A DNA stretch of 59,500 bases, counting the filler. It is 4 parts of 4 records of this genome, joined end to end, with 100 filler letters (N's around TTAATTAATTAA, not from the genome) between each part and the next. Parts side by side here need not be neighbours in the genome. Positions count along the whole stretch, not along the records: positions 34,227 to 53,339 come from SRR31156797_1147; 3 more parts are not named here. One strand, 5' to 3'. Every line of letters begins with the position of its first letter. Position 1 is the stretch's first letter. The notes beneath the pieces are model-generated. The model made no database searches and was not told the origin of the DNA. It saw only the letters and a program-made list of their open reading frames with translations. A program made the translations under genes and the position numbers. This document shows positions 38,393-53,439 of this stretch, one piece after another.

Positions 38393-38485
38393 GTATCTTC
38401 TCTTTTTCTTGAGGGCTTCCAGCCGACCCTTGAATGAGACATCGGATGGCCCGGAGTTCTTTCAAAATTTCGGATAGCAATTTTT

Positions 38486-38713: not shown

Positions 38714-38721
38714 AATGATAT

Positions 38722-39099
38722 TTGGAGTTTTTTTCTATGACCTACGCTTTGGTTGTGATTGAGAGACCTGACCTTTCAAACCCCGATAATATAGAAGCAT
38801 GGAATGATCTCTTATCAATTCTTTCGTGTAATAAAGGATCGAAAGTAGACCACCCCAGCCTCGACGACCCCAGAATAATTGGCGAAGGTATATTCCAAAT
38901 GAATATACGTGACGACGCAGGCATCCTTGTAGGTATGCTATCCTTCGCTCAAGAAATTGGGCTTCCATATCGGCTGGCACTTCTCGACCGTAAGCCGGAC
39001 TGGATTTATCCTGAAAACGATCAAGTTGAGGCGATAAGAGAAATATTCGTAGATTGTTTACAAAAACATCGTAGAAATACTGCTTCCGGTCTTCTTTAG
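38722..39099 (+). CDS. Hypothetical protein (conflicts with antisense ORF 38735-39259)
   Basis: GGAG SD before ATG at 38737; globular composition. Confidence 0.45.
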   Translation: MEFFSMTYALVVIERPDLSNPDNIEAWNDLLSILSCNKGSKVDHPSLDDPRIIGEGIFQMNIRDDAGILVGMLSFAQEIGLPYRLALLDRKPDWIYPENDQVEAIREIFVDCLQKHRRNTASGLL

Positions 39100-39265
39100 T
39101 CCGAAGGTCTTTGAATCTGCGTCTATCGCGATAGTCGTAATAATTGTCGTGGGTGATTTTGTGCAGTTTCATTAAGTGCCCCAGGTTGTAAGCGCCGCGT
39201 AAGGTCGATAATCGACATAGGCATCCGATTTCATGGTTTTCATATAGAGCATTCCTCATTTGATG

Positions 39266-39323
39266 TTGAGGGGATATTACACGAAATGAAATTTACTGTC
39301 AAGGTGGTATTTCATTATGAAAT
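39266..39323 (-). promoter_or_regulatory. Leftward early promoter plus operator
   Basis: Minus strand TTGACA-N17-TAATAT; palindrome ATTTCA-TTA-TGAAAT at 39309-39323. Confidence 0.8.
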
Positions 39324-39850
39324 CTAGTCAAGAAGATATTATTCAGCGGATAATGAAGGCATATAGCGCTACCGATGACGAGATGATGTCCAAATGCATG
39401 GGGTGTACTAAATCATCGGTTTCAAATTATCGGCATGGGCGGCGGAAGATTCCTATTAACCTGATAATGAAAGTATCCGAAGAAACGGGTCATTCAACCG
39501 ACTGGCTTTTAACCGGTAATTCGCCAAAAGCAAACGACACCCCCGTTGCTCATCAAGTTGTAGACCATGAAACATATCAGCAAGACACTGAAAGTCTCCT
39601 GGAAATCTACAAACACGGGAACCCAAAGACAATCTCGGCCATTCACGCAAATTTGGAAGAATTTGTTGAGAAAGTTCGTTACGAGAAGAAAGTCGCAGAA
39701 CTGGAAGAAACCGTTGCAAGTCAAGGTGTTGCCATAGAAGCCTATGGGAAAGCCCAGGAATCCATGAAGGAAGAGTTGAAAGAACTGAAATCCCAACTGT
39801 CTACAATGATACACGAGGTCCCCAAGAAAACGGCCAACGGGGGTGCGTGA
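39317..39850 (+). CDS. CI-like phage repressor (XRE HTH)
   Basis: MGCTKSSVSNYRHGRRKIP...STDWLLTG; coiled-coil C-terminus, no S24 peptidase. Confidence 0.8.
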   Translation: MKSSQEDIIQRIMKAYSATDDEMMSKCMGCTKSSVSNYRHGRRKIPINLIMKVSEETGHSTDWLLTGNSPKANDTPVAHQVVDHETYQQDTESLLEIYKHGNPKTISAIHANLEEFVEKVRYEKKVAELEETVASQGVAIEAYGKAQESMKEELKELKSQLSTMIHEVPKKTANGGA

Positions 39851-39997
39851 TTTACAAAGTGGTTGTAATGAACCATTATCCGGCTCTTTTGAAAGACAGT
39901 ATCTTCAGGAGATTTCGCTCGTATGGCCGTTATAAACTGTGGGCAATTCATAGAGATGGGGCAGTTATCTTAATATTAAGGATGGTGAGGAAACCCA

Positions 39998-41281
39998 ATG
40001 GACGAACATATTCCGAGGTGGAAGGTTTTTAGAGTCGATCACATAGATTACAAAGATAGATTGTTTTTCACTAAGGATTATGACGAAAAGTTCAATTTAA
40101 TTGAAAATGAGGCGTGTGATGTTCAAGAGTTTCTGGAAAGCGATTTAAATTTTGCGAAAACGCTCTATCCAGAATTTGTATATGATTTAGGCTTTTGTAA
40201 ATCCTGGAGGGAGCTTTGGAAAAAGTCGATTGAAAGTGATTTTACCAAAGAGTCGATTGCGAACCACGGTGCAAAAAAAAGACATATGAAGAAGTCACTC
40301 AAAGGAACTTCAAAAGAAGCTTTTTTGGAAGGGCCTGCTGGTTGGGATAGAGACTTCACCGATAATTTCGCTATATGGCCTTATTGGGACGAATATCGTT
40401 TCGAAATAGGCCGTTATGAAACGATTAACGGGATTGCGAAACAAAAACTAATCGATGAAGGTGGGTATGATTGGAGGGGTTTTGCTGTTTTTGTCGCAAA
40501 AGATAAAGGTGTTTTTTATGTTAATTTCGAGGTTAAACAGGATTGGTCCAAAGAGAGAGAAAACGAATTTTTTAAATGGATTGAGTCTGATGACCCCGGA
40601 CCTGTTATATTCAACGATCTTCTTTACGCCAAAGACCTTACAGATGTCTACACTGGTAAAGGCAACGTTGGTCATTGCATCGGATTCAATGAAAATAAGA
40701 TCGATATGGATGTTTTTGTTGGTGCAGATTACAAGAATTCAGATTACTTAAACCCACACCGGTATGCAGTTTTTACTGTGGATCGCGAATGGACGGTATG
40801 CTACCGAGAGGTATGGAAAAAAAGAAAAGCTGAACAGGACCGTATAGTAAAAGAAGCAAAACTTAATTTCGCAAGAATGGTCCTCAAGGATCGTTCTAAC
40901 AATCTTTCCATGGAAGCTATTCTGGAAAAAATCAGTTCATCCGATTTGGTCAGCGAGGAAGCATTGGAACTCATTGCCAAAGCATATGACCCTGTAGGGA
41001 TGGTTTATAAAAACGCCTATCAAGATGAAATCAATCGAATACGAGGTGAAAGCCATTGGACTTTCGGAACATCAATTCAGACTATAGAAGATCCTGAAAC
41101 AGGGTTACTGCGATTGGCTACGGGAACCAAAGGTGCATCTTTTTTGCTTGGCGTGACCCAAAGCACTGTTCGTAATCGGTTCAACAAAGGGAAGCTTGCC
41201 GGGATAAAGAACGATTCGATTTGGATATGGCTTGACACCATTAAAGACTCGGAGGAATTTGCAAATGTCGAAAGATTATGA
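39998..41281 (+). CDS. Hypothetical protein with C-terminal HTH
   Basis: 427 aa; GASFLLGVTQSTVRNRFNKGKL. Confidence 0.65.
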   Translation: MDEHIPRWKVFRVDHIDYKDRLFFTKDYDEKFNLIENEACDVQEFLESDLNFAKTLYPEFVYDLGFCKSWRELWKKSIESDFTKESIANHGAKKRHMKKSLKGTSKEAFLEGPAGWDRDFTDNFAIWPYWDEYRFEIGRYETINGIAKQKLIDEGGYDWRGFAVFVAKDKGVFYVNFEVKQDWSKERENEFFKWIESDDPGPVIFNDLLYAKDLTDVYTGKGNVGHCIGFNENKIDMDVFVGADYKNSDYLNPHRYAVFTVDREWTVCYREVWKKRKAEQDRIVKEAKLNFARMVLKDRSNNLSMEAILEKISSSDLVSEEALELIAKAYDPVGMVYKNAYQDEINRIRGESHWTFGTSIQTIEDPETGLLRLATGTKGASFLLGVTQSTVRNRFNKGKLAGIKNDSIWIWLDTIKDSEEFANVERL

Positions 41282-41402
41282 TAAAGATAGTGAAAATAAT
41301 GATGATTTTATCTTTGAGCATAACCCGGAAGAAAGAAACACGATCATAGACACCTTGCCACCACCGACGGAACCACCGGGGCAGGAAACCAATGATGAAT
41401 AG
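41265..41402 (+). CDS. 45-aa acidic Pro-rich peptide (not in ORF track)
   Basis: GGAGG SD at 41251; MSKDYDKDSENNDDFIFEHNPEERNTIIDTLPPPTEPPGQETNDE*. Confidence 0.55.
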   Translation: MSKDYDKDSENNDDFIFEHNPEERNTIIDTLPPPTEPPGQETNDE

Positions 41403-41413
41403 GAGAAAAACCT

Positions 41414-41935
41414 ATGTCAAACACAGCCTTTCACACCCTGCTATTTGGCGTTCGTCGTTCTATCCGATACCATTTGAGGCGCAGATCTTTTTTTGACCGT
41501 CTCAGTAAATTTTCGACATTCTTTGCCGCGTTGGCTGGAACCGCTACTGTTGCTTCTGTTCTGGGTAAAGCAGGTTATGGATGGACCGTTGCCTTTTCCG
41601 TGGCCGTGGCCGTCTTCTCAGTCATCGATCTGGTAATCGGATCCGCGCAGTCCGCCAGGTTGCATCACGATCTCGCGAGGCGATTTATCAATCTGGAAAA
41701 AGACATGGTTTCCCTGAAAAGCCCCACCCAAGAGGAGATTGACGGGCTAACCGGACGTCGGCTTGACATTGAAGCGGATGAACCTCCGCCTTTAAAGGTC
41801 TTGGATTGTATTTGTCATAATGAGTTATTGCGGGCCATGGGATACGACGAAAAAAAGTTTGCAAGAATACGCTGGTATCAACGCCTATTCTCCCAACTGT
41901 TTGATATTCGGGAGAATGTTATCACACGAAATTAA
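41414..41935 (+). CDS. SLATT-like 2-TM protein
   Basis: Basic N-terminal helix (YH..RR.F), two TM helices, A..H..L...F..L helix. Confidence 0.6.
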   Translation: MSNTAFHTLLFGVRRSIRYHLRRRSFFDRLSKFSTFFAALAGTATVASVLGKAGYGWTVAFSVAVAVFSVIDLVIGSAQSARLHHDLARRFINLEKDMVSLKSPTQEEIDGLTGRRLDIEADEPPPLKVLDCICHNELLRAMGYDEKKFARIRWYQRLFSQLFDIRENVITRN

Positions 41936-42366
41936 CCTATACAACGATCACCCATTTCCACCAGATATTTTTCAACCGCAGCGCAGAATAATTTTGAGCG
42001 GTCCAAACCTTTGGTTTCCTTGACGACTTTACCGGCCTTTTCCAACAGGTCCACCGGCACCATGACATTAATCCGCTTTTTCGGTTTATACGCTTCCATC
42101 ATTTTCTCATTTGGTACAACCGGGAAAACCAATTCCCCATCTCCGGCTTCCGTTTTGATTTTTTCATACGAACGTGGTGCCTGATATTCACGCCCCAGGC
42201 GACCGATCACGATCATACCACTTAATGCATCGGTGGCCATATGCAGGGCTTCATCCAGGTCCCCACCTTCAGTATGAACCCCTGGCGCATCCGGGAAGCT
42301 AACCCCCCAGCCTGTTTTCAAACGAAAAAATATACCGTAATAATGTTTCATTGTCGTTACCTCCAT
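41932..42366 (-). CDS. hicB: HicB family antitoxin
   Basis: VSFPD.PG..T.G....EA..MA.DAL plus C-terminal RHH (RINV.VP..LL, RS.L). Confidence 0.9.
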   Translation of the reverse strand: MEVTTMKHYYGIFFRLKTGWGVSFPDAPGVHTEGGDLDEALHMATDALSGMIVIGRLGREYQAPRSYEKIKTEAGDGELVFPVVPNEKMMEAYKPKKRINVMVPVDLLEKAGKVVKETKGLDRSKLFCAAVEKYLVEMGDRCIG

Positions 42367-42455
42367 TATTTATCGGCCTGTTTCAATATCCCTTTTGCCG
42401 TGTATTCATCAATTTCAGAGTGACGGGGGACGGGGCATCTGTAACCCTTCCGGCT
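42366..42455 (-). pseudogene. hicA: Truncated hicA toxin (C-terminal half only)
   Basis: Manual translation ...KGYRCPVPRHSEIDEYTAKGILKQADK*; in-frame stop upstream and no start codon. Confidence 0.7.
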
Positions 42456-42570
42456 TGATTATTACATACGTGTGTAAATATGCCAAGTCATGGCTATACG
42501 TTTTCGCAAAAGAATCATACTCACCACATGGCACTGAGTTTCGTGAAGGGTGTTTTTTTTTGCCTGAAAG

Positions 42571-42629
42571 ATTTCAATTTGAAATCTTCTCTTGACATAA
42601 AATTTCAATACGTGTAATATCCCCCTCAA
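42571..42629 (+). promoter_or_regulatory. Rightward early promoter plus operator
   Basis: ATTTCA-ATT-TGAAAT at 42571-42585; TTGACA(42592)-N17-TAATAT(42615). Confidence 0.8.
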
Positions 42630-42931
42630 GTTGTTCGAACACCCCCTGCGCCGCCGGATTGCCGAAACAATAACAGAATCCGGAGCGGGCCGCAAAAACA
42701 GGACGCACTGCGGAATGATCCGAGTACCCTGAGCGGTTGCGGGTGGAAGCAACGAGCAGTTGAAATGTCGCGGGTTAGCCAAGAGGGAACACGATGGAAA
42801 CAAAAGAGATCAAGTACAGCACCATCAATGGCATGGTGTCATGGAGTGGCAAAACCGAAAAACATGGGTTTATTGGGGTAATGAAGGGCAGCGTAGAACG
42901 GTTACAAGAAGCAATGGAAAAGGAATTCCCT

Positions 42932-43117
42932 TCATTCAGGGTCTCTCTTGTTCCCAAGTAACTCGTCCCGCGCTTCTTGGAGCCATATGATCAGGGTGTC
43001 TATTTGCTCCGGTGGGAATGTTACGCGATGGTAGTCTTCTTCGGCGGGCTCTCTCCCGTCAATAACGACAACATCTCCTTCGGTGGATACTGAAATTTCG
43101 TACATGTCTTTTTTCAT
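42932..43117 (-). CDS. Hypothetical small protein
   Basis: AGAGGA SD, globular 61 aa. Confidence 0.5.
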   Translation of the reverse strand: MKKDMYEISVSTEGDVVVIDGREPAEEDYHRVTFPPEQIDTLIIWLQEARDELLGNKRDPE

Positions 43118-43588
43118 TCTCTGATCCTCTTTTTAAAAAAAAGGGGGGGGGGTTGCTCGGAAATGTAAAACAAATTTCACCTGATGACAAGATTTTTTAA
43201 CCGTTTCGCGCAAGAGAGGCAGCAATGCCCCAGAGACGCGGAACAATAGCGCATTCACACCTAAACCCACAAACCTTTAACGCATAACCTCACGGGCAAA
43301 GGGCCGGGCGGTCCGGCCAGCGCGGAGAGACCTTCTTTCAGTTGGTGGATAGCTGGGATCTTCGATAATAGAGTACCGCACTTTGCCGGAAACCGTTAAC
43401 GTTAAGTAATCCTTAGAGAATTAATCGTCCAACCGCATGACGACGGGTAAAAACTGCGGATGATATGCCGGGGCAGCGCCGGCACGCCTGACGAGCGGAC
43501 AATGTCAACGCCATTTGGTTTACCAGAGTTGTAAAGCCCGGCGGTTACTTTGCCGTTCCGCCTGGCTTTACAAAAAAAAAGGAGGACC

Positions 43589-43699
43589 ATGGAAACCATA
43601 TTCGAATTCATAAATGCAATCTGGCCGGTTCTGGGCAGTACAATACTTGTCAGTGCTCTTTTTGCCCTGGTTCACCTGATAAAGGCCATTTTTTCATAA
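43589..43699 (+). CDS. 36-aa single-TM peptide (not in ORF track)
   Basis: AGGAGG SD; METIFEFINAIWPVLGSTILVSALFALVHLIKAIFS*. Confidence 0.6.
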   Translation: METIFEFINAIWPVLGSTILVSALFALVHLIKAIFS

Positions 43700-43724
43700 A
43701 CCCGTTTTGCACCTGGAGGTCGTC

Positions 43725-44822
43725 ATGAACGCGCAAGAATTGCAGGCGACATTAGAGTCGTTTCAAAAGGAAGGGGCACATTTGCTCCTACCGTCCACAT
43801 ACATTCCCGATATCCCTAAATATCATACGGTTGCGGTTGAGAGGGTATTCCTATCTCCCGATAAAAGCGAAGGCGATGTTTACACCCAAAAACAGAAACT
43901 CGCTTTAACCCGCCAGGGCCTCATGAAACTGGCCAATGCTGCCGGAATGATATGGGACCCCTCTGGCTCAAAGCGGTTGGATGATCGAACCGACAAAGAT
44001 TATGTGGTGTACCAAGCTGTGGGCGGATTAAAAAAACTCGACGGCACCCCGCTTTTTATGAAAGCGGAGTATGACCTGGATTTTGAAATTATCCGGGAAG
44101 AGACTGAAGAGGGATATGAGGAAAAAAAAAGGAAGGATTGGGTTACTGGAAAATGGAAAAAAGACTGGTTCATCAGGATGTCTGATGACCAAAAGGACGA
44201 ATATATCAATAAATGCATCCGGCGGGATGTACTTCAGAAACGTAAACATAAGATCAAGTTGGCCGAAACGGGTGCCATGACCCGGGTAATCCGGGGTTTG
44301 CTAAATCTCAAATCCACCTACACCGTTGAGGAACTGACAAAACCGTTCATCGTTGTCCGTCTGGTCTTCCAACCGGATTATGATGACCCTGAGATTAAAA
44401 GCCGCATGGCCGCCGCAGCCGTGGGTGCGGTTGCAGGAATATTTGGCCCGGCATCAACACAGCCGGCGCTCCCCCCGGCATCCCAGGCTTGCCCGGTATC
44501 TGATGCGGAGATCCCGGATGCTCTACCGATGGATGATGATATCCCCGGTGACATTCCAACCGGTGCGGATCCCGAGGCTACAAATGAAGGCCCTGATCTT
44601 GGGGAGTTCCTGGGAATGTCCGCAAAAAACCGACTTTCCCTTCTCGGGGCAATGGCGAAAAACCGCGGCATGAACGATTCAGCAGCACTATGGGCCTTTT
44701 GGACGAAAACAACGGGCAAGCCCGCGCCGCAAAACGCGTTGAAAATGCCCGAGGATGACATGGTTTCGCTGTTTGAAGCACTAGAATCGTTCAGCCCTGT
44801 TGATGACGATATCCCATTTTAG
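43725..44822 (+). CDS. Phage protein, probably recombination/ssDNA-annealing associated
   Basis: GGAGG SD before ATG 43725; SSB-like DDDIPF C-terminus; precedes sbcD/sbcC. Confidence 0.55.
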   Translation: MNAQELQATLESFQKEGAHLLLPSTYIPDIPKYHTVAVERVFLSPDKSEGDVYTQKQKLALTRQGLMKLANAAGMIWDPSGSKRLDDRTDKDYVVYQAVGGLKKLDGTPLFMKAEYDLDFEIIREETEEGYEEKKRKDWVTGKWKKDWFIRMSDDQKDEYINKCIRRDVLQKRKHKIKLAETGAMTRVIRGLLNLKSTYTVEELTKPFIVVRLVFQPDYDDPEIKSRMAAAAVGAVAGIFGPASTQPALPPASQACPVSDAEIPDALPMDDDIPGDIPTGADPEATNEGPDLGEFLGMSAKNRLSLLGAMAKNRGMNDSAALWAFWTKTTGKPAPQNALKMPEDDMVSLFEALESFSPVDDDIPF

Positions 44823-44833
44823 GAGCTGATATT

Positions 44834-46021
44834 ATGAAAGTACTCCATTTTGCAGATGTCCATGCCCGCGATAAGGATTTGCCCGAAATCGAAGAATGCC
44901 TAATCGAAATCATCCAGGTTGCACACGATGAAAATCCGGACCTGATTGTCATGGCCGGGGACACATTTGACAGTCGAATGGTTCGCCTGGACTCACTATC
45001 ATCGAAGCTCATCTTTGAGAGCTACAAACACTTGGCCGATATAGCTCCGATGATAGTGATCGTGGGCACTCCGTCACATGACGGCATGGCGCCGGAAGTC
45101 CTGGAACACATCAAAGCAGATCATGAAATCTATGTAGCAGAAATTCCCGAACAGATACTCTTGACCGCTGACAATCATTTTACAGTTTCCCCCGTAATCG
45201 AGACCCCTAAAGCTGTTATTTCGATGGTCCCTGCCCCTACCAAACAATTTTGGGAACAGGCGGGAAACGGCAACCAGGATATTGAAGAAGCTGACCAGGG
45301 GATAGCGAATGCTTTGGGTGTCATGATGGCAGGCTTCGGCGCCACAGCTTATGATCACGATTGCCCCCACATTATAGCCGGTCATTTTACAGTGGGTGGC
45401 GCCCAGGTTTCCGAAACGCAGGTGATGACCGGCAGGGAGATCGAGGTCTCCCGTGAACAAATCGGATACGCAAATGCCGACCTGGTGGCATTAGGCCACA
45501 TTCATTATGCCCAAAAGATAGACAGCAACATTTTCTATTCCGGATCGATTTACAGAAAAGATTGGGGTGAATTGGAAGACAAAGGATGCTTTATCCACAC
45601 CCTTGAAAGCGGCACCCTTCATAGCGTATTTCACGAAACCCCGTCAAAAAAGCGCATGAAAGTGTCGGCCGATCTTACAAACGGTTGTCGGTCCCTGGAA
45701 GATGCTCTCAGCAAATATGACCACCTGGAATTGCTCGATGCCCGAGTCCGTTTTGAAATCCGCGTCTTTCAGGATGAGGCTGGGAACATCGATACGGATT
45801 CGCTCATAAAGCAGTACCCGGACCTCGATATTAAAATTCAGCAGGTCCCCAGGGAATCCGTTAGATCATCCGCGATCCTCAAGGTTGAAACGCTTCCGGA
45901 CAAGATCAAAGCTATGGCGGAACTTCGACGGGAAACAGTCCCGGCAACCATCCTTGCCAAAGCTGAACACCTGGAACTCATGCATGCGGATGAACTTTTA
46001 AAAATGGTGGTCAATGGCTAA
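44834..46021 (+). CDS. SbcD/Mre11-like metallophosphoesterase nuclease
   Basis: D.H, AGD.FD, GTPSHD, ALGHIH, YSGS motifs. Confidence 0.88.
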   Translation: MKVLHFADVHARDKDLPEIEECLIEIIQVAHDENPDLIVMAGDTFDSRMVRLDSLSSKLIFESYKHLADIAPMIVIVGTPSHDGMAPEVLEHIKADHEIYVAEIPEQILLTADNHFTVSPVIETPKAVISMVPAPTKQFWEQAGNGNQDIEEADQGIANALGVMMAGFGATAYDHDCPHIIAGHFTVGGAQVSETQVMTGREIEVSREQIGYANADLVALGHIHYAQKIDSNIFYSGSIYRKDWGELEDKGCFIHTLESGTLHSVFHETPSKKRMKVSADLTNGCRSLEDALSKYDHLELLDARVRFEIRVFQDEAGNIDTDSLIKQYPDLDIKIQQVPRESVRSSAILKVETLPDKIKAMAELRRETVPATILAKAEHLELMHADELLKMVVNG

Positions 46022-46244
46022 AGCCAAATGGATGCCAATGGAAAAGCTTTGTTGTAACTGCCATTCGTACGACCTTTTCCATCATAAACGACCGCCAGAA
46101 GACAACGAATACGGTCAGGCATTTTGTGAATATTACGACAAATTCTTTCCAAACCAGGGGCCGGGGAACGATCCTGCCGGATTGAGGACCTGCATTCACT
46201 GGAAACAGAAATGGAAACCGGAGGAAAAGGATGAAGATAAATAG
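46014..46244 (+). CDS. Small Cys-rich protein
   Basis: CCNC...C...C; overlaps both neighbours. Confidence 0.55.
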   Translation: MAKAKWMPMEKLCCNCHSYDLFHHKRPPEDNEYGQAFCEYYDKFFPNQGPGNDPAGLRTCIHWKQKWKPEEKDEDK

Positions 46245-48516
46245 ATTGGCACTCAAGGGGTTCATCGGCATTAAAAAAGGAATGGGTCTTGACGAAATTG
46301 AATTGGACCTTTCCATGCTTAACGGCCTGATCGCATTAAGCGGGAAGAACGGCGCGGGAAAAACTTCCGTGTTGGAATCACTTACGCCGTACAGAACTCT
46401 CGCCAGCCGGAAAAAGGCACTAACCGCGCATTGTTTCATGAAGGATTCTAAAAAAGAGTTGGATTTTGATTTCCAGGGTGACAGCTATCAAACCCGGATC
46501 AAAATCAATGCGGATTCGGGTAAACAGGAAGGGTTTATTTGGCAAAACGGCGCCAGCCTCGTGAACGGAAGCGCACGGGAATATGACCGAAAGATTGCTG
46601 AGATATTTGGTTCAAAGGACCTCTTTTTCAATTCCATCTTTTGCGCCCAAAACGCACAGAAACTATCAGACCTGACCACCTCGAAACTGAAAGAGCTTTT
46701 TTCAGAATTCCTACAGCTGAACAAATACATTGCATACGAGAATACTGTCAAGAAATGCCTTGGGGCACTGGATGCACAACTTGGTGCCTACGAACGTCAA
46801 ACCGAGTCCCTGCAAGAAAAGATTGCACTATTGATAGGGTGTGAAGGGCAGCTTGAGGGAACCATTAAGGCTCAAGGTGAAGAAAAGACACGGCTGCAGC
46901 GGGTTGAAATTGAAATCGAAGCAAACGGGAAAGCCATTATAACTCTGAAAGAACGCATTGCCGCCATGGAAGCCATGGAAGCGAGATCAGATGATTTCCG
47001 GCAAAGGATCTATTCCACCGAATGCGCTCTTTCCGATGAAAAAACAGCGTATGAAGGGCGTGTAGGGGGTATCCGCAGCGACCTGCGAAAATGCAAAAAT
47101 GATCTTTCCAAAATAGAAACCATCCTGAAAATGAAAGACGAAATTGAAACGGCCGTATCTCAGAAAGCGGAGGTTGAAACACGTATTGAAGCACAAACAT
47201 CTAAGGCTGAAAATTGCCAAACAGAGCTATCAGAGATCCGGGAGAAAATCTATCAGCATGATCAAACTATTCTACCGTCAATCCAATCCCATAAGCGGGA
47301 AATGGATATTCCGATCTTGAAAGAGCGTATCATCAACGCAGAGGCCAAGGCCGTGGAATTAGAGAAGCGGGATCAGGAATGCACATCAAGCGTTTGTTCT
47401 TTCATCGTCGGTGCATTGCAAGCTCAGGAATCGATTGATGGATTGCGGAAGGACCTTGCAGCACTTGAAACAGAAGTGGCGAAACATAACGAGCATGTTG
47501 AAACCGTGAGAAAAAAAGCGGCCGAAGAGAAAGCCGAAATGCAGGGGATTGAAAAAGAGGTCTTACTCAAAATGACCTTACTGAAGAACAGACTTTCCAA
47601 GGCGAAAGTCGAACTTGCTGAGCATGCGCGACGAGCGGAACATCACGACGATTTAAAAGTAGCAATGGCTCAAAAATCCGCAATTGAGGCGCGGGCTTCC
47701 GAATTGACCGGTCAGGGGATGAAGGAAAAGCGTACATTTGATGCGAAAACCGTCAAATTACAGGCAGAAATGTCAAAATTTAAGGCTTCCTTGGAAGAAA
47801 TTACATCAAAAATCGACAATTCCGCGAAAGAAAGGCTTGGGGAACTGTTGGGAGTAAACACGAATAAAATCAACGAAAGAACATTTCTAAGAGACAATAT
47901 CAACAGGCTTGAAGCCGAAATACAACAATGCCGAAATGATATCGAAAGAGAAAAAGCTTACCGGGAGCAAAAAGCCGAAATCATCACGAAAATTGAAACC
48001 TTAAAAACCCAGATATCAGAATGGACCTACCTTCGCAATGCTGTATCAAAAGACGGACTCCGGGCCCTGGAGATTGATGGGGTTGCGCCGTCCATTTCCG
48101 CCTACGCAAACCAAATCCTTTTCAACACATTCGGTCCGGCTTATTCCGTGAAATTGCGGACACAGGACGATGAAGGCCGGGAAACCTTGGATATCTTGGC
48201 GCTTGAGGAAGACGGCCGGGAAACCCTCCTTGACGATTTGAGTGGTGGGGAAAAGGTTTGGAGTCTAAAGGCTCTGCGCCTAGCCATGACGCTGATCAGC
48301 AAAGAGAAAAGCGGGAAGGCATTTTTTACCGCCATGGCAGATGAGGAAGATGGGGCACTTGACGCTGGAAACTCACAAAATTTCGTCCATATGTATCGCT
48401 CTTTCATGGAAACCGGAGGATTCGATGACTGCTTTTTCATCTCTCACCGGCCGGAATGCGTAGCGCTCAGTGACCACGTTCTTTCGTTCGAAAGTGGCTG
48501 CATAAACATCAACTAA
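46231..48516 (+). CDS. SbcC/Rad50-like SMC ATPase
   Basis: GKNGAGKT, Q-loop, coiled coil with central C-x4-C, LSGGE, DE.DG.LD, ISH. Confidence 0.9.
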   Translation: MKINRLALKGFIGIKKGMGLDEIELDLSMLNGLIALSGKNGAGKTSVLESLTPYRTLASRKKALTAHCFMKDSKKELDFDFQGDSYQTRIKINADSGKQEGFIWQNGASLVNGSAREYDRKIAEIFGSKDLFFNSIFCAQNAQKLSDLTTSKLKELFSEFLQLNKYIAYENTVKKCLGALDAQLGAYERQTESLQEKIALLIGCEGQLEGTIKAQGEEKTRLQRVEIEIEANGKAIITLKERIAAMEAMEARSDDFRQRIYSTECALSDEKTAYEGRVGGIRSDLRKCKNDLSKIETILKMKDEIETAVSQKAEVETRIEAQTSKAENCQTELSEIREKIYQHDQTILPSIQSHKREMDIPILKERIINAEAKAVELEKRDQECTSSVCSFIVGALQAQESIDGLRKDLAALETEVAKHNEHVETVRKKAAEEKAEMQGIEKEVLLKMTLLKNRLSKAKVELAEHARRAEHHDDLKVAMAQKSAIEARASELTGQGMKEKRTFDAKTVKLQAEMSKFKASLEEITSKIDNSAKERLGELLGVNTNKINERTFLRDNINRLEAEIQQCRNDIEREKAYREQKAEIITKIETLKTQISEWTYLRNAVSKDGLRALEIDGVAPSISAYANQILFNTFGPAYSVKLRTQDDEGRETLDILALEEDGRETLLDDLSGGEKVWSLKALRLAMTLISKEKSGKAFFTAMADEEDGALDAGNSQNFVHMYRSFMETGGFDDCFFISHRPECVALSDHVLSFESGCININ

Positions 48517-48528
48517 GGGGGAAGCAGG

Positions 48529-49437
48529 ATGAAAATACAAGAATCAATAGAAACGTCTATCTCCTGCTTGAGCGATGGAGATTTAGTGGACAAGGCTTAC
48601 AGCGGGTTACTTTCTATCCTTGAACTGGTGAAAACAGACAAAAACACAGGTAAAATTGGCAACATGTGGATAAACAATGGGGGCAGGATACGGAGGGATT
48701 GGGATGTGTTTGAGCCTCTTGTGAAAGGGATCTATATACCGGGGTCGGAAAGATGTTTTTGGAGCGGTTTTTTGGACCCTGTTGATCACCCACCACCAGA
48801 ATCAGGATGTGTTTACATTAAACCAAGATATACCAATTACAGCTTTGAGTTTATTACAATTAAAAGAATCCGACGATTTCCAAAGCATGCGGTATGTCAG
48901 TGTAAGAATCCGGCTTTTATTTATAAGACAATCAATGTTTTTGTCCCAAGCAACAGTTCCGACGATGTTTTTTGTGAACCTGGATATGTCGCTATCGATA
49001 AAGACGGACTCTTTCACACAGTTACCGATAGATTGAAATTGAGAAACAACCTTCTTGGCAATATCATAACTTCAATTAAAGAAGATTTCCAAAACGCAAA
49101 TCATTTTGCCGGGGGTGCAATATCCCTGCTGTCTGACAGGCGCTACCTCTGGAATGTTAGAACAGAAGAGGATTCAGGGTTTTCTGCTCCAGCAGTCGTG
49201 AATTTCGGTGTGGAAAAAGAATTGATAAAGAGCCTTTTTTTCGCAAGGGATGAACCTATGACGAAATTGGGCCGAAAAAGACCAATTTTACATTGGGTTA
49301 AAGCCCATGAAAGAAGGATCAAGAAAGGAATCGGGATAGAAATAGACCGCTATTTGAGGGGTATAACAAAATTCAAAATGGGTGAGCTTGAATTTTCGAT
49401 CACCAAACCAATAAAAGGCGGCATAAGCATCAATTGA
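48529..49437 (+). CDS. Hypothetical phage protein
   Basis: 302-aa ORF in operon; C-terminal HWVKAHER motif. Confidence 0.6.
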   Translation: MKIQESIETSISCLSDGDLVDKAYSGLLSILELVKTDKNTGKIGNMWINNGGRIRRDWDVFEPLVKGIYIPGSERCFWSGFLDPVDHPPPESGCVYIKPRYTNYSFEFITIKRIRRFPKHAVCQCKNPAFIYKTINVFVPSNSSDDVFCEPGYVAIDKDGLFHTVTDRLKLRNNLLGNIITSIKEDFQNANHFAGGAISLLSDRRYLWNVRTEEDSGFSAPAVVNFGVEKELIKSLFFARDEPMTKLGRKRPILHWVKAHERRIKKGIGIEIDRYLRGITKFKMGELEFSITKPIKGGISIN

Positions 49438-49561
49438 TATCGACAATATGCCGTTTGCCCTCTGCGCTATGACGGCCCACCTTGGGGACGGTGCAAGACC
49501 AATACAAGGCGCCCGCGCGTATCAAAGGCCATGATAATGAGTCGAAGGGAAAGAGAGAGAG

Positions 49562-49912
49562 TTGGCAAGGCAAACGGCATTGAAAAAAAGGAGCACCCCA
49601 ATGACATTCGAAGAAATAGACACCCTGCAGCATCGAATAGAAACGCTATTCATGGATCAATGGGAGGGAATGCCCGAATCCAAACCCACCTACACCGAAT
49701 GGTTTTACAGCGATGGCGGTCCACGGGATGCGATTGACACGCTCTTGAACAAAATGCGGGATGCTGTAATTCAAAAAACGTATGTCCCGGGATGTATCAG
49801 GTCAAAAAATCAATTTTTCCGGCCGATTCAGGTGTGTGAGAGATGCAAGGATAAAGACTCTTGTGCCCCCTATATGGAAACAAAAGAGCGCCTTGACGAG
49901 GTGGCGGCATGA
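49562..49912 (+). CDS. Hypothetical protein (start probably ATG at 49601)
   Basis: AGGAG SD; Cys cluster; ATGA overlap with the helicase. Confidence 0.55.
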   Translation: MARQTALKKRSTPMTFEEIDTLQHRIETLFMDQWEGMPESKPTYTEWFYSDGGPRDAIDTLLNKMRDAVIQKTYVPGCIRSKNQFFRPIQVCERCKDKDSCAPYMETKERLDEVAA

Positions 49913-51588
49913 GCCTCCGGAAGCATCAGAAAGAATTTGGCGAAACAATTGACGGGATCATAGAGGGATCCGGCGTGAAAACAATTGTCCTGGACGTAAC
50001 ACCCGGCGGCGGGAAGTCTGCCATTCCTCCTATTGCCGGAAAACTCATTAAAGCAGGCCTGGCCGACGCGATAGCATGGATTGTGCCTCGGAAGGCATTA
50101 CAAGATCAGGGTGAGAGAACGTTTCTTGACCCTTTTTTTCGAGACATACTCGGGCATAAACTCACAATCCGCACAAGCACGAACGATGTGGACCCGTGCC
50201 GCGGGCTTAATGGCCTGATCACGACATATCAAGCCCTCGGTTTGTCCAACTGGAACCTCGTCGAAGATTTCAGTCGGAAGCGATACATTTTAATCCTTGA
50301 TGAGTTCCATCATGTGGCAAAAGCCGGGACGTGGCATAAGGCCCTCGCCCCGTTGGTCGAAAAAGCCGCGTTTAAGGTCTTCATGACTGGAACCATGGCC
50401 AGGGGGGACCGGGAAGACATCGCTTTTTTGAAATACCAGATGGGAAGGCCGGTTTTCGGCCCCGAAACCAAATATATTGGGTACGGCCGTACCATGGCCC
50501 TGCAGGAACGGGCAATCATCCCGTTGCGCTTCCGTCTTTCCGATGCACAAGCGGCTTGGAGGAACGAAAGCAATGAAAAAGTCGAAGTTGAAAGTATCGC
50601 TAGAGTATACCGCCCTAAAGAGCTTTCAGCCGCCATTTACACGGCAGTGCGGACAGATTTCGCAAAAGCCCTTCTGGAAAGCAGCCTGGCTGACTGGCGC
50701 CAATACCGGTCGCGTACCGGCCATATGTCGGCCTTCCTGGCGGTAACCGCGGATGTGAAGCATGCCAAGCAAGTATTGAAATACCTTCAGGCCCGCGGCC
50801 TTCACGCGGAAATCGCAACCAGCCATGACAGTCCGCAGGCGCACAGGGCAATCAAAGGGTATAAGGCTGGAGAGTTCGATATTTTAGTCTCGGTGGCCAT
50901 GGCTTATGAAGGTCTCGATGTCCCGAGAATTACACATATCGCGAGTCTGACGCAGATCCGCAGTGAGCCTTGGATAATTCAGATGCTTGCCCGCGCGGTA
51001 AGAGTTGATCGCGCCATTCCATACGAGCAGCAAGAGGCTTTCATCTATGCCCCGGATGACCACCTTTTCAGGAAGATCGTGAACAATATCAAAGCCGAGC
51101 AGACAGCCATGGCTGGAAAATTCGGGCTCGAAATCGAAAGAGAATCCAAATCAGAAGGCGGCGGTGGACCGGACGTAATCCCCATTGGATCCACTCTCAC
51201 CGGGGACCGTTCCATCTTCCTGGGCGGAGGAAACGGAAACGCCTTCACACCTCCGCCCCCGGCGCCCATGCCGAAAACCCCGACAGAAATTGAGGCGGAA
51301 TTGAGAACGGAGATTGAGGAACACATCCGGAAATACTGCTACACGCACCACATTAAGATCCAGAAGATCAACGCCAGGATAAAACGGGAAACGGGGAAAG
51401 CCCGGCCGGAAATGACTTTGGCGGAGCTGGAGACGACCCTTGCCTTAGTTCGGGATCGGTATCCTTTGGACCGGAAGGGTAGGAAGCCAATAAGGCCCGT
51501 TATCAGCAAGCCAAGGACGGTTGTATGTGAGGGTCCGGGGGTACATGTGCAGGGGATTCTTTGGGAAACTCCGGAATGGCGAGCGTGA
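49909..51588 (+). CDS. SF2 DExH helicase (ResIII-like)
   Basis: TPGGGKS, DEFHH, TGT, EGLDVP, Q.L.RA.R. Confidence 0.88.
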   Translation: MSLRKHQKEFGETIDGIIEGSGVKTIVLDVTPGGGKSAIPPIAGKLIKAGLADAIAWIVPRKALQDQGERTFLDPFFRDILGHKLTIRTSTNDVDPCRGLNGLITTYQALGLSNWNLVEDFSRKRYILILDEFHHVAKAGTWHKALAPLVEKAAFKVFMTGTMARGDREDIAFLKYQMGRPVFGPETKYIGYGRTMALQERAIIPLRFRLSDAQAAWRNESNEKVEVESIARVYRPKELSAAIYTAVRTDFAKALLESSLADWRQYRSRTGHMSAFLAVTADVKHAKQVLKYLQARGLHAEIATSHDSPQAHRAIKGYKAGEFDILVSVAMAYEGLDVPRITHIASLTQIRSEPWIIQMLARAVRVDRAIPYEQQEAFIYAPDDHLFRKIVNNIKAEQTAMAGKFGLEIERESKSEGGGGPDVIPIGSTLTGDRSIFLGGGNGNAFTPPPPAPMPKTPTEIEAELRTEIEEHIRKYCYTHHIKIQKINARIKRETGKARPEMTLAELETTLALVRDRYPLDRKGRKPIRPVISKPRTVVCEGPGVHVQGILWETPEWRA

Positions 51589-51604
51589 TGATCTTAAAGT
51601 TTAT

Positions 51605-51708
51605 GCGGCTGGGCTCACAGCCGAAGGGTGAGGGCTACCCAGCCACTCACCAACCTAACAACCACTATAGGTGAAACATTTCAACCTGTATAGCATCAAG
51701 ATGTTGGG
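51605..51708 (+). ncRNA. tracrRNA-like scaffold, copy A
   Basis: Shares a 29-nt identical block, CACTCACCAACCT, GGTGAAACA and ATCAAGATGTTGGG with 53157-53281; hairpins; anti-repeat GGTGAAAC. Confidence 0.7.
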
Positions 51709-51793
51709 GTTTCACTCACGGGCGCGGGGATGAGTCGTTACATGTTAACAAGGGAAGGAAGGGGCATTAGTTTCACCCACGGGCGCGGAACCG
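51709..51793 (+). CRISPR. Mini CRISPR array: 29-nt repeat, 32-nt spacer, degenerate repeat
   Basis: GTTTCACTCACGGGCGCGGGGATGAGTCG (51709-51737); TTACATGTTAACAAGGGAAGGAAGGGGCATTA (51738-51769); GTTTCACCCACGGGCGCGGAACCG (51770-51793). Confidence 0.8.
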
Positions 51794-51831
51794 CACAAAT
51801 CAAGACCCGGAGCTACTATTAGGAGGGAAAA

Positions 51832-53223
51832 TTGAAGACACATACAAGGACAATAAAACCGCAATTGAAAATCAAAGCTTCTTCCCCCGACGCAAAAAAA
51901 CGGGCGTACAAACGTTTGTATCAGATATCAAATGATGCATGGCGGGCGGCCAATTGGGTCATCGGTGGCCAATATTTAAACGATTTACTTATGCGCCGGG
52001 TTTATGCTCGGAAAAAGATTAACGCAAAAAAAGACACGGATGCGATACAGGCGGTTGAAAAAGAAATTTTCGATAAAACGGGATTCTTCGGGTTAAAACG
52101 TCAAGCGTCAACGGAAAGGGATATTAAAGAAGCTTTCCCTGAGTTGCCGCCGTGTGTGACAAATTCTATGAATAGTGTGCTTTTCGCAAATTACAAAAAA
52201 GACAAACCGGATATGCTCATGGGAAAACGATCTTTACGCTCATATAAAGAGGGCATGCCTATCCAGGTTTCCAAAGCATCCGTGACGTTTTTTAAAGAAG
52301 GCAACAATCATTACATTCGATGGAAGTTGAGTAGGTCTGAGGAAATTCTATTCACCATTGAATACGGCAAAGACAAAGCGAACTTCCAGGGAACCGTTTC
52401 AGCTATCTTAGAGGGCGATCTCGATTTTTCAGCGCCACAAATTCAAATAAAAAAAAGAAAAACCTTCCTTTGTTTACCTGCCAAAGAACCTGAAAGACCG
52501 GCAGAGATAGACCCGGAATTATCCGTGGGGGTCAATCTGGGGATGCTCACGCCTGCTTACGTTGTGCTTGCCGACAATTCCGAACATCAACCCATCGGTT
52601 CGGGTAACGATTTTGGTCGGGTCAGATTGCAGATGCAGGACCGTCGAAAACGCCTGCAAAAAGACTTAAAATCGGCAAGGGGCGGTAAAGGCAGGAAAAA
52701 GAAGATGAAGGCCATGTCTCGAATCCGAGACAAAGAACGGAATTTTGCGCGAAGCTACAATCATTTTGTCAGCAAGGAAATACTCAATTTTACTACGAAA
52801 AACCGGGCGGGAGTGATCAAGCTGGAGATGTTGGAAGGTTTTGGAAAGTCCGAAAGAAATGCTTTGGTTCTGCGGAACTGGTCATATTTCGAGTTACAGG
52901 AAATGGTGAAATACAAGGCCAAACGATTAGGCATCAAGGTTGTAAAAGTGGACCCGTATATGTCCAGCCAAACTTGTGCCTTATGTGGGCATCACGAAAA
53001 AGGTCAGGTAGATAACGTATCCAAGACGTTCCTTTGTAAAGCGTGCAACAAAATTATGGATTCTGACCACAATGCGGCTCTGAACAATGCGAAATCGACC
53101 AATATCGTTACCAAGAAAGAGCAATGCGTTGTTTGGAAAAAAAATATGAAAAAAAAGCGGCTGGGCTCACAGCCGAAGGGTGAGGCTGAGGGTGAAGCCC
53201 TTGAGCACTCACCAACCTCGTAA
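51832..53223 (+). CDS. Cas12f/TnpB-family RNA-guided protein, RuvC-I Asp replaced by Asn (predicted nuclease-dead)
   Basis: SLRSYKEGMPI, GVNLG (N235), GGKGRKKK, NH.VSK, IKLE (E332), LRNWSYFELQ..V.YKA, CALC/CKAC zinc finger, DSDHNAALN (D412); AGGAGG SD, TTG start. Confidence 0.88.
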   Translation: MKTHTRTIKPQLKIKASSPDAKKRAYKRLYQISNDAWRAANWVIGGQYLNDLLMRRVYARKKINAKKDTDAIQAVEKEIFDKTGFFGLKRQASTERDIKEAFPELPPCVTNSMNSVLFANYKKDKPDMLMGKRSLRSYKEGMPIQVSKASVTFFKEGNNHYIRWKLSRSEEILFTIEYGKDKANFQGTVSAILEGDLDFSAPQIQIKKRKTFLCLPAKEPERPAEIDPELSVGVNLGMLTPAYVVLADNSEHQPIGSGNDFGRVRLQMQDRRKRLQKDLKSARGGKGRKKKMKAMSRIRDKERNFARSYNHFVSKEILNFTTKNRAGVIKLEMLEGFGKSERNALVLRNWSYFELQEMVKYKAKRLGIKVVKVDPYMSSQTCALCGHHEKGQVDNVSKTFLCKACNKIMDSDHNAALNNAKSTNIVTKKEQCVVWKKNMKKKRLGSQPKGEAEGEALEHSPTS

Positions 53224-53281
53224 CCCTTTTTCAGGCGCTATGTGTTGCGGGTGAAACAGATATCCCTATCAAGATGTTGGG
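53157..53281 (+). ncRNA. tracrRNA-like scaffold, copy B (overlaps the 3' end of the cas12f-like ORF)
   Basis: Same conserved blocks as copy A; anti-repeat GGGTGAAAC at 53249-53257. Confidence 0.72.
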
Positions 53282-53339
53282 GTTTCACCCACGGGCGCGG
53301 GGATGAGTCGGTCATTGGTGGCGGCATCGGATAGCAGCC
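53282..53339 (+). CRISPR. Start of a CRISPR array, truncated at contig end
   Basis: Repeat GTTTCACCCACGGGCGCGGGGATGAGTCG (53282-53310, 28/29 identical to 51709-51737) plus 29 nt of putative spacer. Confidence 0.72.
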
Positions 53340-53439
53340 NNNNNNNNNNNNNNNNNNNNNNNNNNNNNNNNNNNNNNNNNNNNTTAATTAATTAANNNNN
53401 NNNNNNNNNNNNNNNNNNNNNNNNNNNNNNNNNNNNNNN
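53340..53439. other. Artificial contig linker
   Basis: N44-TTAATTAATTAA-N44. Confidence 0.98.

Follow-up and report, generated by a model that had tools for sequence, protein, structure and literature searches.

Type V-F1 CRISPR effectors are small TnpB-like proteins (about 400-700 aa) in which WED and REC domains are combined with a split RuvC and a zinc-finger TNB, and Cas12f1 works as a homodimer on one guide RNA, with an array beside the gene and a tracrRNA that pairs with the repeat. Arrays of the type I-E style combine a 29-nt repeat, which contains an internal hairpin, with spacers of 32-33 nt, and their protospacers carry an AAG PAM. The published PAMs of Cas12f1 are described as T-rich (PMC13186708), and that of AsCas12f1 is given as GTTG (10.1101/2023.07.03.547593). 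Members of the family that have lost cleavage are also on record: the Bacteroidota dCas12f proteins are presented as carrying C-terminal truncations that remove part of RuvC, most of them without arrays and with rpoE or HTH partners, and the same source notes a cluster of dead Cas12f adjoining CRISPR arrays (PMC13472631). RNA-guided DNA binding that silences without cleavage is likewise reported for Cas12m and TldR (PMC10691335, PMC13472631). Moreover, the Lalka phages of Thermus are described as encoding Cas12r, a small type V effector beside a short array (repeats of 29 bp, spacers of 32-33 bp), which lacks adaptation genes, whose PAM overlaps the I-E AAG and for which adaptation by the type I-E system of the host was proposed. 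This 564-aa protein is placed in another TnpB branch and characterised as a tracrRNA-free, active nuclease whose interference is abolished by D238A (10.64898/2026.04.20.719267).

A cas12f1-like gene between two arrays in a phage-like contig

The locus reported here was found in a window of 59,500 nucleotides (the whole stretch of DNA analysed), which comprises four contigs set apart by N linkers. The contig under study, at positions 34227-53339, is phage-like and carries a cas12f1-like gene with a guide scaffold and CRISPR repeats on either side (Table 1). In our reading, which we consider fairly probable, the phage carries here a type V-F1-like effector that is dead as a nuclease, binds DNA under RNA guidance and depends on a type I-E system for adaptation in trans.

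Table 1. Features of the locus, numbered along the window
Feature	Position	Strand	Remarks
Upstream tracrRNA-like scaffold	51605-51708	+	Covariation; covariance model R1, 73.3 bits, E 2.6e-20
Upstream 29-nt CRISPR repeat	51709-51737	+	Type I-E-like; 17/29 positions shared with the I-E repeat of E. coli K-12 (shuffle mean 8.0)
Spacer 1, 32 nt	51738-51769	+	
Degenerate terminal repeat	51770-51798	+	First 19 nt match the repeat; 3' part diverged
cas12f1-like gene	51832-53223	+	463 aa; TTG start behind AGGAGG
N235 codon	52534-52536	+	RuvC-I Asp to Asn
E332 codon	52825-52827	+	
V393 codon	53008-53010	+	TNB Arg to Val
D412 codon	53065-53067	+	
Downstream tracrRNA-like scaffold	53157-53281	+	Covariance model R1, 67.9 bits, E 1e-18; starts in the 3'-terminal codons of the ORF
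First repeat of the downstream array	53282-53310	+	18/29 identical to the E. coli I-E repeat
Spacer 2	53311-53339	+	Truncated here where the contig stops; complete spacer of 33 nt in contigs of the sample

The open reading frame is full length and preceded by a strong Shine-Dalgarno sequence, and its final 22 codons overlap the downstream scaffold. The encoded protein, which has the size and domains of a type V-F1 effector, matches the Pfam family Cas12f1-like_TNB (4.5e-20) and shows the CxxC...CxxC zinc finger at C382/C385/C402/C405. Its best sequence match in the PDB is CnCas12f1 (8hr5, E 1.9e-61), followed by 9nzo/9nzr (1.8e-60) and 9nzp (2.8e-58), with Cas12f1 chains spanning from 1.9e-61 to 1e-23. 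A structure predicted for the 463 residues (pLDDT 86.2) led to the same neighbours, and Foldseek placed CnCas12f1 8hr5 at the top (7.6e-28) and the TnpB structure 8h1j behind (1.5e-13). By sequence and by fold, the protein groups with the Cas12f1 nucleases (CnCas12f1, Al3Cas12f, RhCas12f, AsCas12f) ahead of TnpB, in agreement with the type V-F-like identity first assigned to it.

None of the 72 ORFs of at least 60 aa in the contig had a Pfam match to Cas1, Cas2, Cas4 or an IS200/IS607 transposase, as the initial annotation had stated, and neither Cascade nor Cas1-Cas2 genes occur in the contig. Its remark that the partner genes of other dead homologues were not visible also held: no sigma-factor family was detected among the 72 ORFs of this contig, which stops inside the downstream array, nor was an oppF or csrA partner seen in it, and none of these is needed to explain the locus. 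Scans for promoters and terminators returned nothing above shuffle level, and an Rfam scan of positions 51300-53339 gave chance-level matches only. In the related locus L090 a homologous helicase (33% identity, 3e-58) lies directly upstream, which we count as support for a stable phage module. An IMG/VR search with the single protein recovered no relatives, a profile of the family found four loci, and a profile of the second N-E-D clade described below found no loci.

Guide scaffolds, arrays and their protospacers

The same cassette had been claimed for both sides of the gene, in the form of a scaffold, a 29-nt repeat and then a different spacer, and this arrangement is found at both flanks. 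The block at 51605-51633 is identical to that at 53157-53185 (29/29), the one at 51695-51737 matches 53268-53310 in 42/43 positions, and the cassettes measure 133 nt upstream and 154 nt downstream through the end of the repeat, after which the spacers differ. In the upstream scaffold, helix 1 is formed by 51606-51611 with 51618-51623 and helix 2 by 51627-51635 with 51642-51651. Both helices are kept in the two scaffolds of the window, yet these share only 72% column identity. Across the family the two helices covary, with 97.7% of cells pairing and 9/15 pairs changed on both sides, a result matched by 0/500 shuffles. The covariance model R1 gave 64 matches in 54/98 loci, every one of them (64/64) on the strand of the gene, and just two in the window. 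Among the 20 closest loci, 17 carry the scaffold motif beside the gene, several of them on both sides. The stretches at 51670-51677 (GGTGAAAC) and 53249-53257 (GGGTGAAAC) are complementary to the first 8 and the first 9 nt of the repeat, respectively, so a tracrRNA-like pairing of 8-9 nt may be predicted, although a control on the longest anti-repeat helix did not discriminate own repeats (mean 8.3) from foreign ones (7.8).

The units had been read at first as single repeat-spacer guides. While the scaffolds do stand on both sides, the upstream unit is rather a one-spacer mini-array, made of a repeat, a 32-nt spacer and a degenerate repeat, a layout with which the upstream arrays of L091 and L094 also end, and the downstream unit is a longer array: beyond position 53339, where an extension of the contig had been suggested, contigs of the probable source sample continue it to at least four repeats. 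The 19-nt core of the repeat occurs three times in the window against none expected from 100 shuffles. Arrays accompany 16/20 of the closest loci, the largest with 21 repeats. The 29-nt repeats match the I-E repeat of E. coli K-12, as read from L174, at 12-23/29 positions (shuffle mean about 8), and spacers are 31-33 nt long. The locus joins two formats, an array next to the gene, here on both of its sides, as for type V-F1, and the 29-nt repeats, 32-33-nt spacers and AAG flanks of type I-E.

The AAG comes from two perfect protospacers. Spacer 2 has a perfect second copy in the same sample, on a piece of 317 nt, with a 5' AAG flank (...AAAATCAA then G), and a spacer of the related locus L008 matches 33/33 nt elsewhere in its MAG, behind the flank ...CAAG. 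A 5' AAG is thus present in 2/2 perfect protospacers, a PAM derived from n=2, which fits type I-E acquisition and says little about the PAM of the effector itself. The suggestion of searching the same metagenome was fruitful for spacer 2. For spacer 1, no match appeared in the window, IMG/VR or 50,697 phage records (the latter by blastn). With 3 mismatches allowed over 24 nt, or with seeds of 16-20 nt, the window contains no further match to either spacer, and IMG/VR contains no exact 20-mer of them. In other loci, the array of L007 showed no self match, and the spacers of L006 matched a short repetitive motif of its MAG at 20-25/32 nt, which we did not count as protospacers. The second copy of spacer 2 has a sequencing depth of 38.3, against 36.7-37.3 for the phage contigs, and its persistence at phage depth fits a non-cutting effector. 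Its composition is only suggestive of where it comes from (joint probability 0.015 for a phage-like origin, 0.0005-0.004 for low-GC contigs). Regarding the adaptation-less module originally proposed, adaptation genes are indeed missing in cis, but to judge from the spacer length and the AAG flanks, adaptation would be of type I-E and act in trans.

Loss of two catalytic residues and its alternative explanations

The full TnpB/Cas12f layout attributed to the 463-aa protein has to be amended in one respect: the ORF, the CxxC...CxxC motif and the family stand, but RuvC is not intact, with N235 in place of the first catalytic Asp. In the alignment, N235 corresponds to D225 and V393 to R383 of AsCas12f1, where D225A and R383A are each reported to abolish cleavage (10.1101/2023.07.03.547593). 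The protein therefore departs from the intact RuvC D-E-D triad and TNB Arg at two positions, and keeps E332 and D412. The two losses go together in the family. Among 121 relatives, Asp is found at RuvC-I in 106, the TNB Arg is kept in 101/101 full-length D-E-D proteins, and it is missing from 9/9 full-length N-E-D proteins, replaced by L in seven, V in one and I in one, all nine retaining the equivalents of E332 and D412. These N-E-D proteins fall in two separate clades (support 0.986 and 0.999). The window protein arose inside a clade that is mostly D-E-D, separately from the dead Cas12f of Bacteroidota. N235 is not an error, because the sister protein P0001 of locus L091 (58% identity) agrees with the window protein in N, E, D and the Cys residues, besides having arrays on both sides of its gene, and the sample's contigs show no variant letters. 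With two cleavage-essential positions changed, the protein most likely binds its targets rather than cutting them. The DNA-binding role, initially postulated over a cutting one with no evidence given, gains support from N235, V393 and their perfect co-occurrence throughout the family, binding without cutting being what we infer from sequence.

Since only 2/4 of the residues essential in AsCas12f1 are changed, residual or altered activity could be left, and the module may be conceived as a still active nuclease, perhaps weakened or nicking, which the phage turns against rival mobile elements as in the Cas12r of Thermus phages. The protein retains E332, D412 and its zinc finger, most relatives are D-E-D, those of L090 and L006 among them, and phage type V nucleases acting on rival elements have been documented (10.64898/2026.04.20.719267; Cas12p, 10.1101/2025.01.20.633832). 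We regard this possibility as unlikely, given that the equivalents of D225A and R383A both abolish AsCas12f1 cleavage, that Asp and Arg were jointly lost in 9/9 N-E-D proteins of two clades, and that the second copy of spacer 2, perfect and flanked by AAG, is maintained at phage depth.

The same two losses could also be those of a decaying, non-functional Cas12f remnant that rides in the phage. The protein keeps 125/141 near-invariant columns of the family (88.7%, against a median of 97.5%), which might be a sign of decay and not of a new role, and the upstream array is down to one spacer. Decay is difficult to reconcile with a full-length ORF behind a strong Shine-Dalgarno sequence, with a sister that conserves the relevant residues and both arrays, and with two scaffolds that have diverged while holding helices 1 and 2. 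Moreover, the second N-E-D clade has seven diverged members (53-65% identity), which argues for a long-lived state, and we consider the remnant quite improbable.

A phage scaffold pairing with type I-E repeats of the host, so that the dead protein would sequester or misuse host crRNAs, is very improbable as an anti-CRISPR or decoy strategy. The I-E-like repeats, the scaffold stretches complementary to them and an effector that probably does not cut are all compatible with it, whereas the arrays belong to the locus itself and hold unique spacers, and the architecture is shared by chromosomal D-E-D relatives. Finally, the option against which the initial annotation had itself set its proposal, a conventional TnpB of IS200/IS605 or IS607 accompanied by its omega RNA, with transposon ends as duplicated blocks, is scarcely credible: the downstream scaffold does begin inside the 3' end of the ORF, in an omega-RNA-like manner, and the NCBIfam guided_TnpB subfamily model does match (2.7e-46), but TnpA is missing from the 72 ORFs, IS200_TnpB and IS607_TnpB score 71 and 53 bits, far below their cut-offs of 425 and 350, Cas12f structures rank above TnpB, and the blocks are not transposon ends, because CRISPR repeats and spacers come after the scaffolds both in this locus and in its relatives, in arrays of up to 21 repeats.

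Proposed mechanism and implications

For the nuclease-dead, RNA-guided binder that we favour, one or a few transcripts of the + strand would contain the first scaffold and array, the cas12f-like mRNA, and the second scaffold and array. Each scaffold would provide a tracrRNA part, and through its pairing to the 29-nt repeat guide RNAs would arise that carry the spacer at their 3' end. The protein, with its Cas12f fold and zinc finger, would then bind AAG-flanked DNA complementary to the spacer without cutting it, and the bound complex might prevent a target from being transcribed or replicated, whether this target lies in the phage itself, in its host or in a rival element. As the spacers have type I-E format and PAM, new guides would probably be obtained through the host I-E Cas1-Cas2 acting in trans.

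A more speculative proposal, which we advance tentatively and would not call likely, is that a temperate phage carries here a self-contained programmable repressor, in which a dead Cas12f uses guides renewed by the host I-E system, at least one of them aimed at DNA present once per phage genome (its own genome or the lysogen), CRISPR memory being used for control of phage or host genes and not for defence. If this were true, the convergent disappearance of both Asp and Arg from two clades would represent a repeated evolution of natural CRISPRi modules from Cas12f nucleases.

Natural nuclease-dead relatives of Cas12 and TnpB, such as Cas12m, TldR and dCas12f-sigmaE, have put RNA-guided DNA binding at the service of gene control. 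To these the present locus adds an independent route of inactivation in a full-length protein, by joint loss of RuvC-I Asp and TNB Arg, as observed in two clades. It also adds a phage context, a recurring layout of guide scaffold and array on both sides of the gene, and arrays that resemble clients of type I-E adaptation with AAG-flanked targets. Should non-cutting binding be confirmed, the 463-aa protein would count as a natural CRISPRi effector of very small size whose PAM is unusual, and the phage would be one that exploits spacer acquisition by its host. The perfect, tolerated copy of spacer 2 present in this sample provides a direct way of approaching the natural target of the protein.

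Comparison with known systems

The window protein has the size, domain order, zinc-finger TNB and fold of the Cas12f1 nucleases (CnCas12f1 8hr5, Al3Cas12f 9nzo/9nzr, RhCas12f 9nzp, AsCas12f1 8j12/7wju), and its locus shares with their systems a tracrRNA-like scaffold beside the gene, a spacer 3' of the repeat and no adaptation genes nearby. It differs from them in N235 and V393, at two positions required for cleavage, in its type I-E style repeats and two protospacers with AAG, and in a scaffold that abuts the first repeat and is present on both sides of the gene.

With the Bacteroidota dead Cas12f (dCas12f-sigmaE, 9n9c, matched at 2.6e-34) it has in common a derivation from Cas12f and a binding without cutting that is either predicted or demonstrated. 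However, instead of being truncated in its C-terminal RuvC, the window protein extends over the full length, its losses are limited to point changes and D412 is present, and in place of an rpoE operon with extended CTD and a single chimeric gRNA, we find arrays on both sides and no sigma factor in a phage-like contig that ends inside an array.

Cas12r, compared here by its description alone, resembles the window locus in phage setting, array format, AAG and lack of adaptation genes, but it is a protein of 564 instead of 463 aa, active, devoid of a tracrRNA and from another TnpB branch. Cas12m and TldR also belong to other branches of the TnpB/Cas12 tree, the Cas12m2 structure being a distant Foldseek match to the window model (3.8e-08), and TldR uses omega-RNA-like guides without arrays, whereas the window locus has arrays. 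What both have in common with the window module is the proposed mode of action, an RNA-guided silencing without cleavage.

A Cas12f1-type gene on a phage-like contig

The locus lies on the third of the four contigs, which are separated by N/ttaattaattaa linkers, and the gene set of this 19.1-kb contig looks like that of a phage or similar mobile element. Its GC content is 42-53%, versus 24-36% in the other three contigs, with which it was probably binned by coverage, so that its host may be an organism other than the bin. A Pfam scan of its 15 larger ORFs and the 57 remaining ORFs of at least 60 aa (72) gave no match to Cas1, Cas2, Cas4 or an IS200/IS607 transposase, bearing out the initial annotation in this regard, and the duplicated cassette that it described around the gene proved real, with two almost identical blocks and a repeat core found three times versus none expected from 100 shuffles. 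The helicase-methyltransferase fusion lies near the CI-type repressor and HicB genes of the same contig, and the 302-aa and 116-aa ORFs between the SbcC-like gene and a helicase have no match in Pfam or PHROG.

Features of the window, with positions along the whole stretch
Feature	Position	Strand	Remarks
N linkers	15383-15482, 34127-34226, 53340-53439		
Third contig	34227-53339		carries the Cas12f-like locus
SNF2-type helicase + N6/N4 DNA methyltransferase fusion	34375-36873	-	832 aa; phrog_16 at 2.8e-127
CI-type repressor	39317-39850		third contig
HicB antitoxin-like gene			third contig; no obvious HicA
SbcD- and SbcC-like proteins	44834-48516		third contig
302-aa ORF	48529-49437	+	
116-aa ORF	49562-49912	+	
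Two helicases			third contig
Two strong PHROG families			third contig; function unknown
cas12f1-like ORF	51832-53223	+	463 aa; TTG start after AGGAGG box
First cassette block	51605-51633 = 53157-53185		identity 29/29
Second cassette block	51695-51737 = 53268-53310		identity 42/43
19-nt repeat core	51709, 51770, 53282		

In the upstream unit a tracrRNA-like scaffold is followed by a 29-nt repeat, a 32-nt spacer and, at the end, a degenerate repeat; the downstream unit begins 64 nt upstream of the stop codon and extends to the contig end. The encoded protein matches Pfam Cas12f1-like_TNB (4.5e-20) and NCBIfam guided_TnpB (2.7e-46), and scores far under the cut-offs of IS200_TnpB and IS607_TnpB. 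By sequence search its closest solved structures are Cas12f1 nucleases: 8hr5 (1.9e-61; CnCas12f1, as named in the Foldseek match), Al3Cas12f (9nzo/9nzr, 1.8e-60) and RhCas12f (9nzp, 2.8e-58), followed by AsCas12f1 (AsCas12f chains, about 1e-34), dCas12f (9n9c, 2.6e-34) and ISDra2 TnpB (3.9e-10); the accessible text of PMC13186708 assigns the 9nz* entries to Al3, Os and Rh proteins. An AlphaFold2 model built from 38 relatives (mean pLDDT 86.2) likewise put Cas12f structures on top in Foldseek (8hr5, 7.6e-28, versus 1.5e-13 for TnpB 8h1j). At an E-value threshold of 1e-10 a database search returned 207 relatives, the nearest of them 58% identical. GenBank phages held no close relative (6 of 50,697 records match, at 31.7% identity at best).

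CRISPR association among relatives

DNA around the relatives' genes was taken from IMG/VR, one-genome-per-species contigs and metagenome contigs. Among the window and its 19 closest loci, the scaffold motif adjoins the gene in 17 of 20 and a CRISPR array in 16. At three loci (L006, L007, L008) the scaffold starts at the stop codon and passes straight into arrays whose repeats measure 29 nt and whose spacers measure 32 nt; the L008 array has 21 repeats. Relatives that share the window's two-sided layout are L001/L094 (two instances of a single element, with 4 differences in 5372 nt), L090, L098, L091, where arrays lie on both sides, and, by covariance model, L099. The genomic settings vary, some being chromosomal (L086, L087) and others phage-like, such as L094 with its gp32-like, RecA, HNH and SMC-like ATPase genes; in L090 a helicase lies directly upstream, 33% identical to that of the window (E 3e-58). 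Judged from this surrounding DNA, the window gene is CRISPR-associated and not part of a transposon. A TnpB transposon, which the guided_TnpB match might recall, is scarcely credible, as CRISPR arrays adjoin the gene in relatives and no TnpA, nor Cas1, Cas2 or Cas4, occurs in 48 neighbouring ORFs of 13 related CRISPR-associated loci.

The arrays themselves have a type I-E style. The family's 29-nt repeats share 12-23 of 29 positions with the E. coli K-12 repeat, taken from its genome record (shuffle means about 8; window repeats 17/29 and 18/29), and units are spaced by 61-62 nt in both. In the MAG that holds L008 the I-E-like repeat occurs solely beside the cas12f-like gene, and a 3.3-kb contig without array (L165, G004 contig 96) encodes a Cas6e (9.6e-51), so that a type I-E system and the Cas12f-like effector may both draw on the L008 array. 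That the window's module acts as a decoy for host I-E crRNAs, for which the repeat format would be suitable, seems very improbable, as the locus has arrays of its own with unique spacers.

Scaffold RNA

Two helices persist across 20 scaffold 5' modules, pairing in 97.7% of cells, and both sides change in 9 of 15 pairs; these values were reached by none of 500 shuffles, slid controls pair in 26-49% of cells, and RNAalifold agrees. The covariance model finds exactly two matches in the window (73.3 and 67.9 bits) and, on 98 loci, 64 matches in 54 loci, all on the gene's strand, 20 of the 64 being training sequences; nine of the 98 loci carry at least two copies. Helices 1 and 2 fold in both window scaffolds, yet helix 2 size and linker are unlike. 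Each has a stretch of 8-9 nt that could pair with the first bases of its repeat; in L094 and L088 a change in this pairing is compensated, and other relatives have complementarity to the repeat's 3' end instead. A simple control of own versus foreign repeats (8.3 versus 7.8) did not discriminate, so that repeat:anti-repeat pairing is no more than plausible.

A third copy of the 5' module lies at L094:7338-7401, about 1.5 kb past the second array (45 bits). The module (helix 1, GAAGGGTGAGG, hairpin, CACTCACY) is also kept beside distant Cas12f-like genes of 30-40% identity in Bacteroidota, Clostridia and other MAGs (L009-L012, L019, L026, L028, L101, L107 and others), where the repeats are not I-E-like.

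A paired loss in the nuclease site

Catalytic columns were counted in an alignment of the window protein with 120 relatives. RuvC-I holds D in 106, N in 12 and H in 3, RuvC-II holds E in 115 and RuvC-III holds D in 113; the window protein has N235, E332 and D412. In the HMMER alignment N235 corresponds to AsCas12f1 D225 and V393 to R383 (chain numbering +10), and according to 10.1101/2023.07.03.547593, in its accessible part, D225A, E324A, R383A and D401A each abolish cleavage. The Arg is present in all 101 full-length D-E-D proteins (residues at RuvC-I, -II and -III) and missing in all nine full-length N-E-D proteins, replaced by Leu (7), Val (window) or Ile (the relative P0001); the remaining sequences are H-E-D with Arg (2), N-A-D with Arg (1), N-E-N with Lys (1), H-C-G with Glu (1) and fragments (6). 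In a FastTree phylogeny of 112 sequences, nine fragments under 400 aa being dropped, P0001 is the sister of the window protein (support 0.986), and the seven N-E-D proteins that remain group in a clade of their own (0.999), which indicates at least two joint losses of Asp and Arg. A sequencing slip does not explain N235, because P0001, from another record (L091) and 58% identical, also has N and arrays on both sides, and the contigs of the probable source sample show no other letters.

A nuclease that is still active nevertheless has some basis, as E332 and D412 are kept in all nine N-E-D proteins, which counts against a clean dead reading; given the paired loss, we regard it as unlikely. Of 141 near-invariant columns the window protein retains 125, versus a family median of 97.5%, again at odds with a clean dead reading, and a decaying remnant appears improbable in view of the recurrence in two clades.

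Spacer targets

Contigs of the probable source sample come from one DNA run, possibly the window's own source, and so are not independent of it. A 20,935-nt contig stops exactly at window position 53339, and the repeat reappears at 61-nt spacing in a 22,991-nt contig of the same depth (37) and in small graph pieces. This gives the downstream array a minimum of four repeats and three complete spacers (33, 32 and 31 nt). The two contigs are joined through this array, which makes an element of at least 44 kb probable.

Two perfect protospacers were found. In E. coli, the G of the PAM becomes the last base of the repeat. A 34-nt graph piece at double depth (77.5) comprises the last repeat base G and the whole of spacer 2, from the downstream unit, and is entered both from the repeat on the phage contig (36.7) and from a 317-nt piece (38.3) with a non-repeat flank ending ...AAAATCAA before the G. 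This second copy is thus perfect, AAG-flanked and present about once per phage genome, and in composition it resembles phage-like DNA more than the bin's low-GC contigs (joint probability 0.015 versus 0.0005-0.004). The other protospacer matches an L008 spacer over 33/33 nt on another contig of the same MAG (L175:3001-3033, G004 contig 20; 5' flank ...CAAG), inside a 627-aa right-handed beta-helix ORF, perhaps a tailspike-like gene of a prophage or a self-target, even though the D-E-D site of the L008 effector is intact. AAG is the type I-E PAM, as the Cas12r preprint (10.64898/2026.04.20.719267) states for Thermus.

The initial annotation had proposed an RNA-guided DNA-binding module with one guide unit on each side, to be checked beyond the contig end and by spacer matches in the same metagenome. 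The proposal is supported overall, refined in that the downstream unit is an array and the RuvC-I Asp is replaced.

Proposed mechanism

We favour, with some reserve, a phage-borne Cas12f1-type effector that would bind DNA in an RNA-guided manner without cutting it, because of the paired Asp/Arg loss, its recurrence in two clades and the perfect target tolerated at equal depth. The phage would carry this effector together with two arrays and the tracrRNA scaffolds belonging to it, the effector would bind guide-matched DNA with no cleavage, and spacers would be supplied in trans by a type I-E adaptation complex, to which the array format and the AAG flanks point. Such a supply was proposed for Thermus phages by the Cas12r authors (10.64898/2026.04.20.719267).

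Comparison with known systems

Dead Cas12f proteins are already known (PMC13472631, PMC10691335): dCas12f-sigmaE is C-terminally truncated, with arrays mostly lost, and a separate array-associated dead Cas12f cluster has been noted, bioinformatically only. Phage-borne small type V systems are known as well; Cas12r (10.64898/2026.04.20.719267) and Cas12p (10.1101/2025.01.20.633832) are described there as active nucleases of other branches. In the literature searched, supplements aside and as far as its texts were accessible, no full-length Cas12f1 clade had scaffolds and I-E style arrays flanking the gene on either side together with Asp/Arg-pair inactivation and a phage location. What appears to be new is this combination: a full-length Cas12f1 clade with two-sided I-E style arrays and scaffolds, a predicted inactivation through the Asp/Arg pair, and a phage setting.
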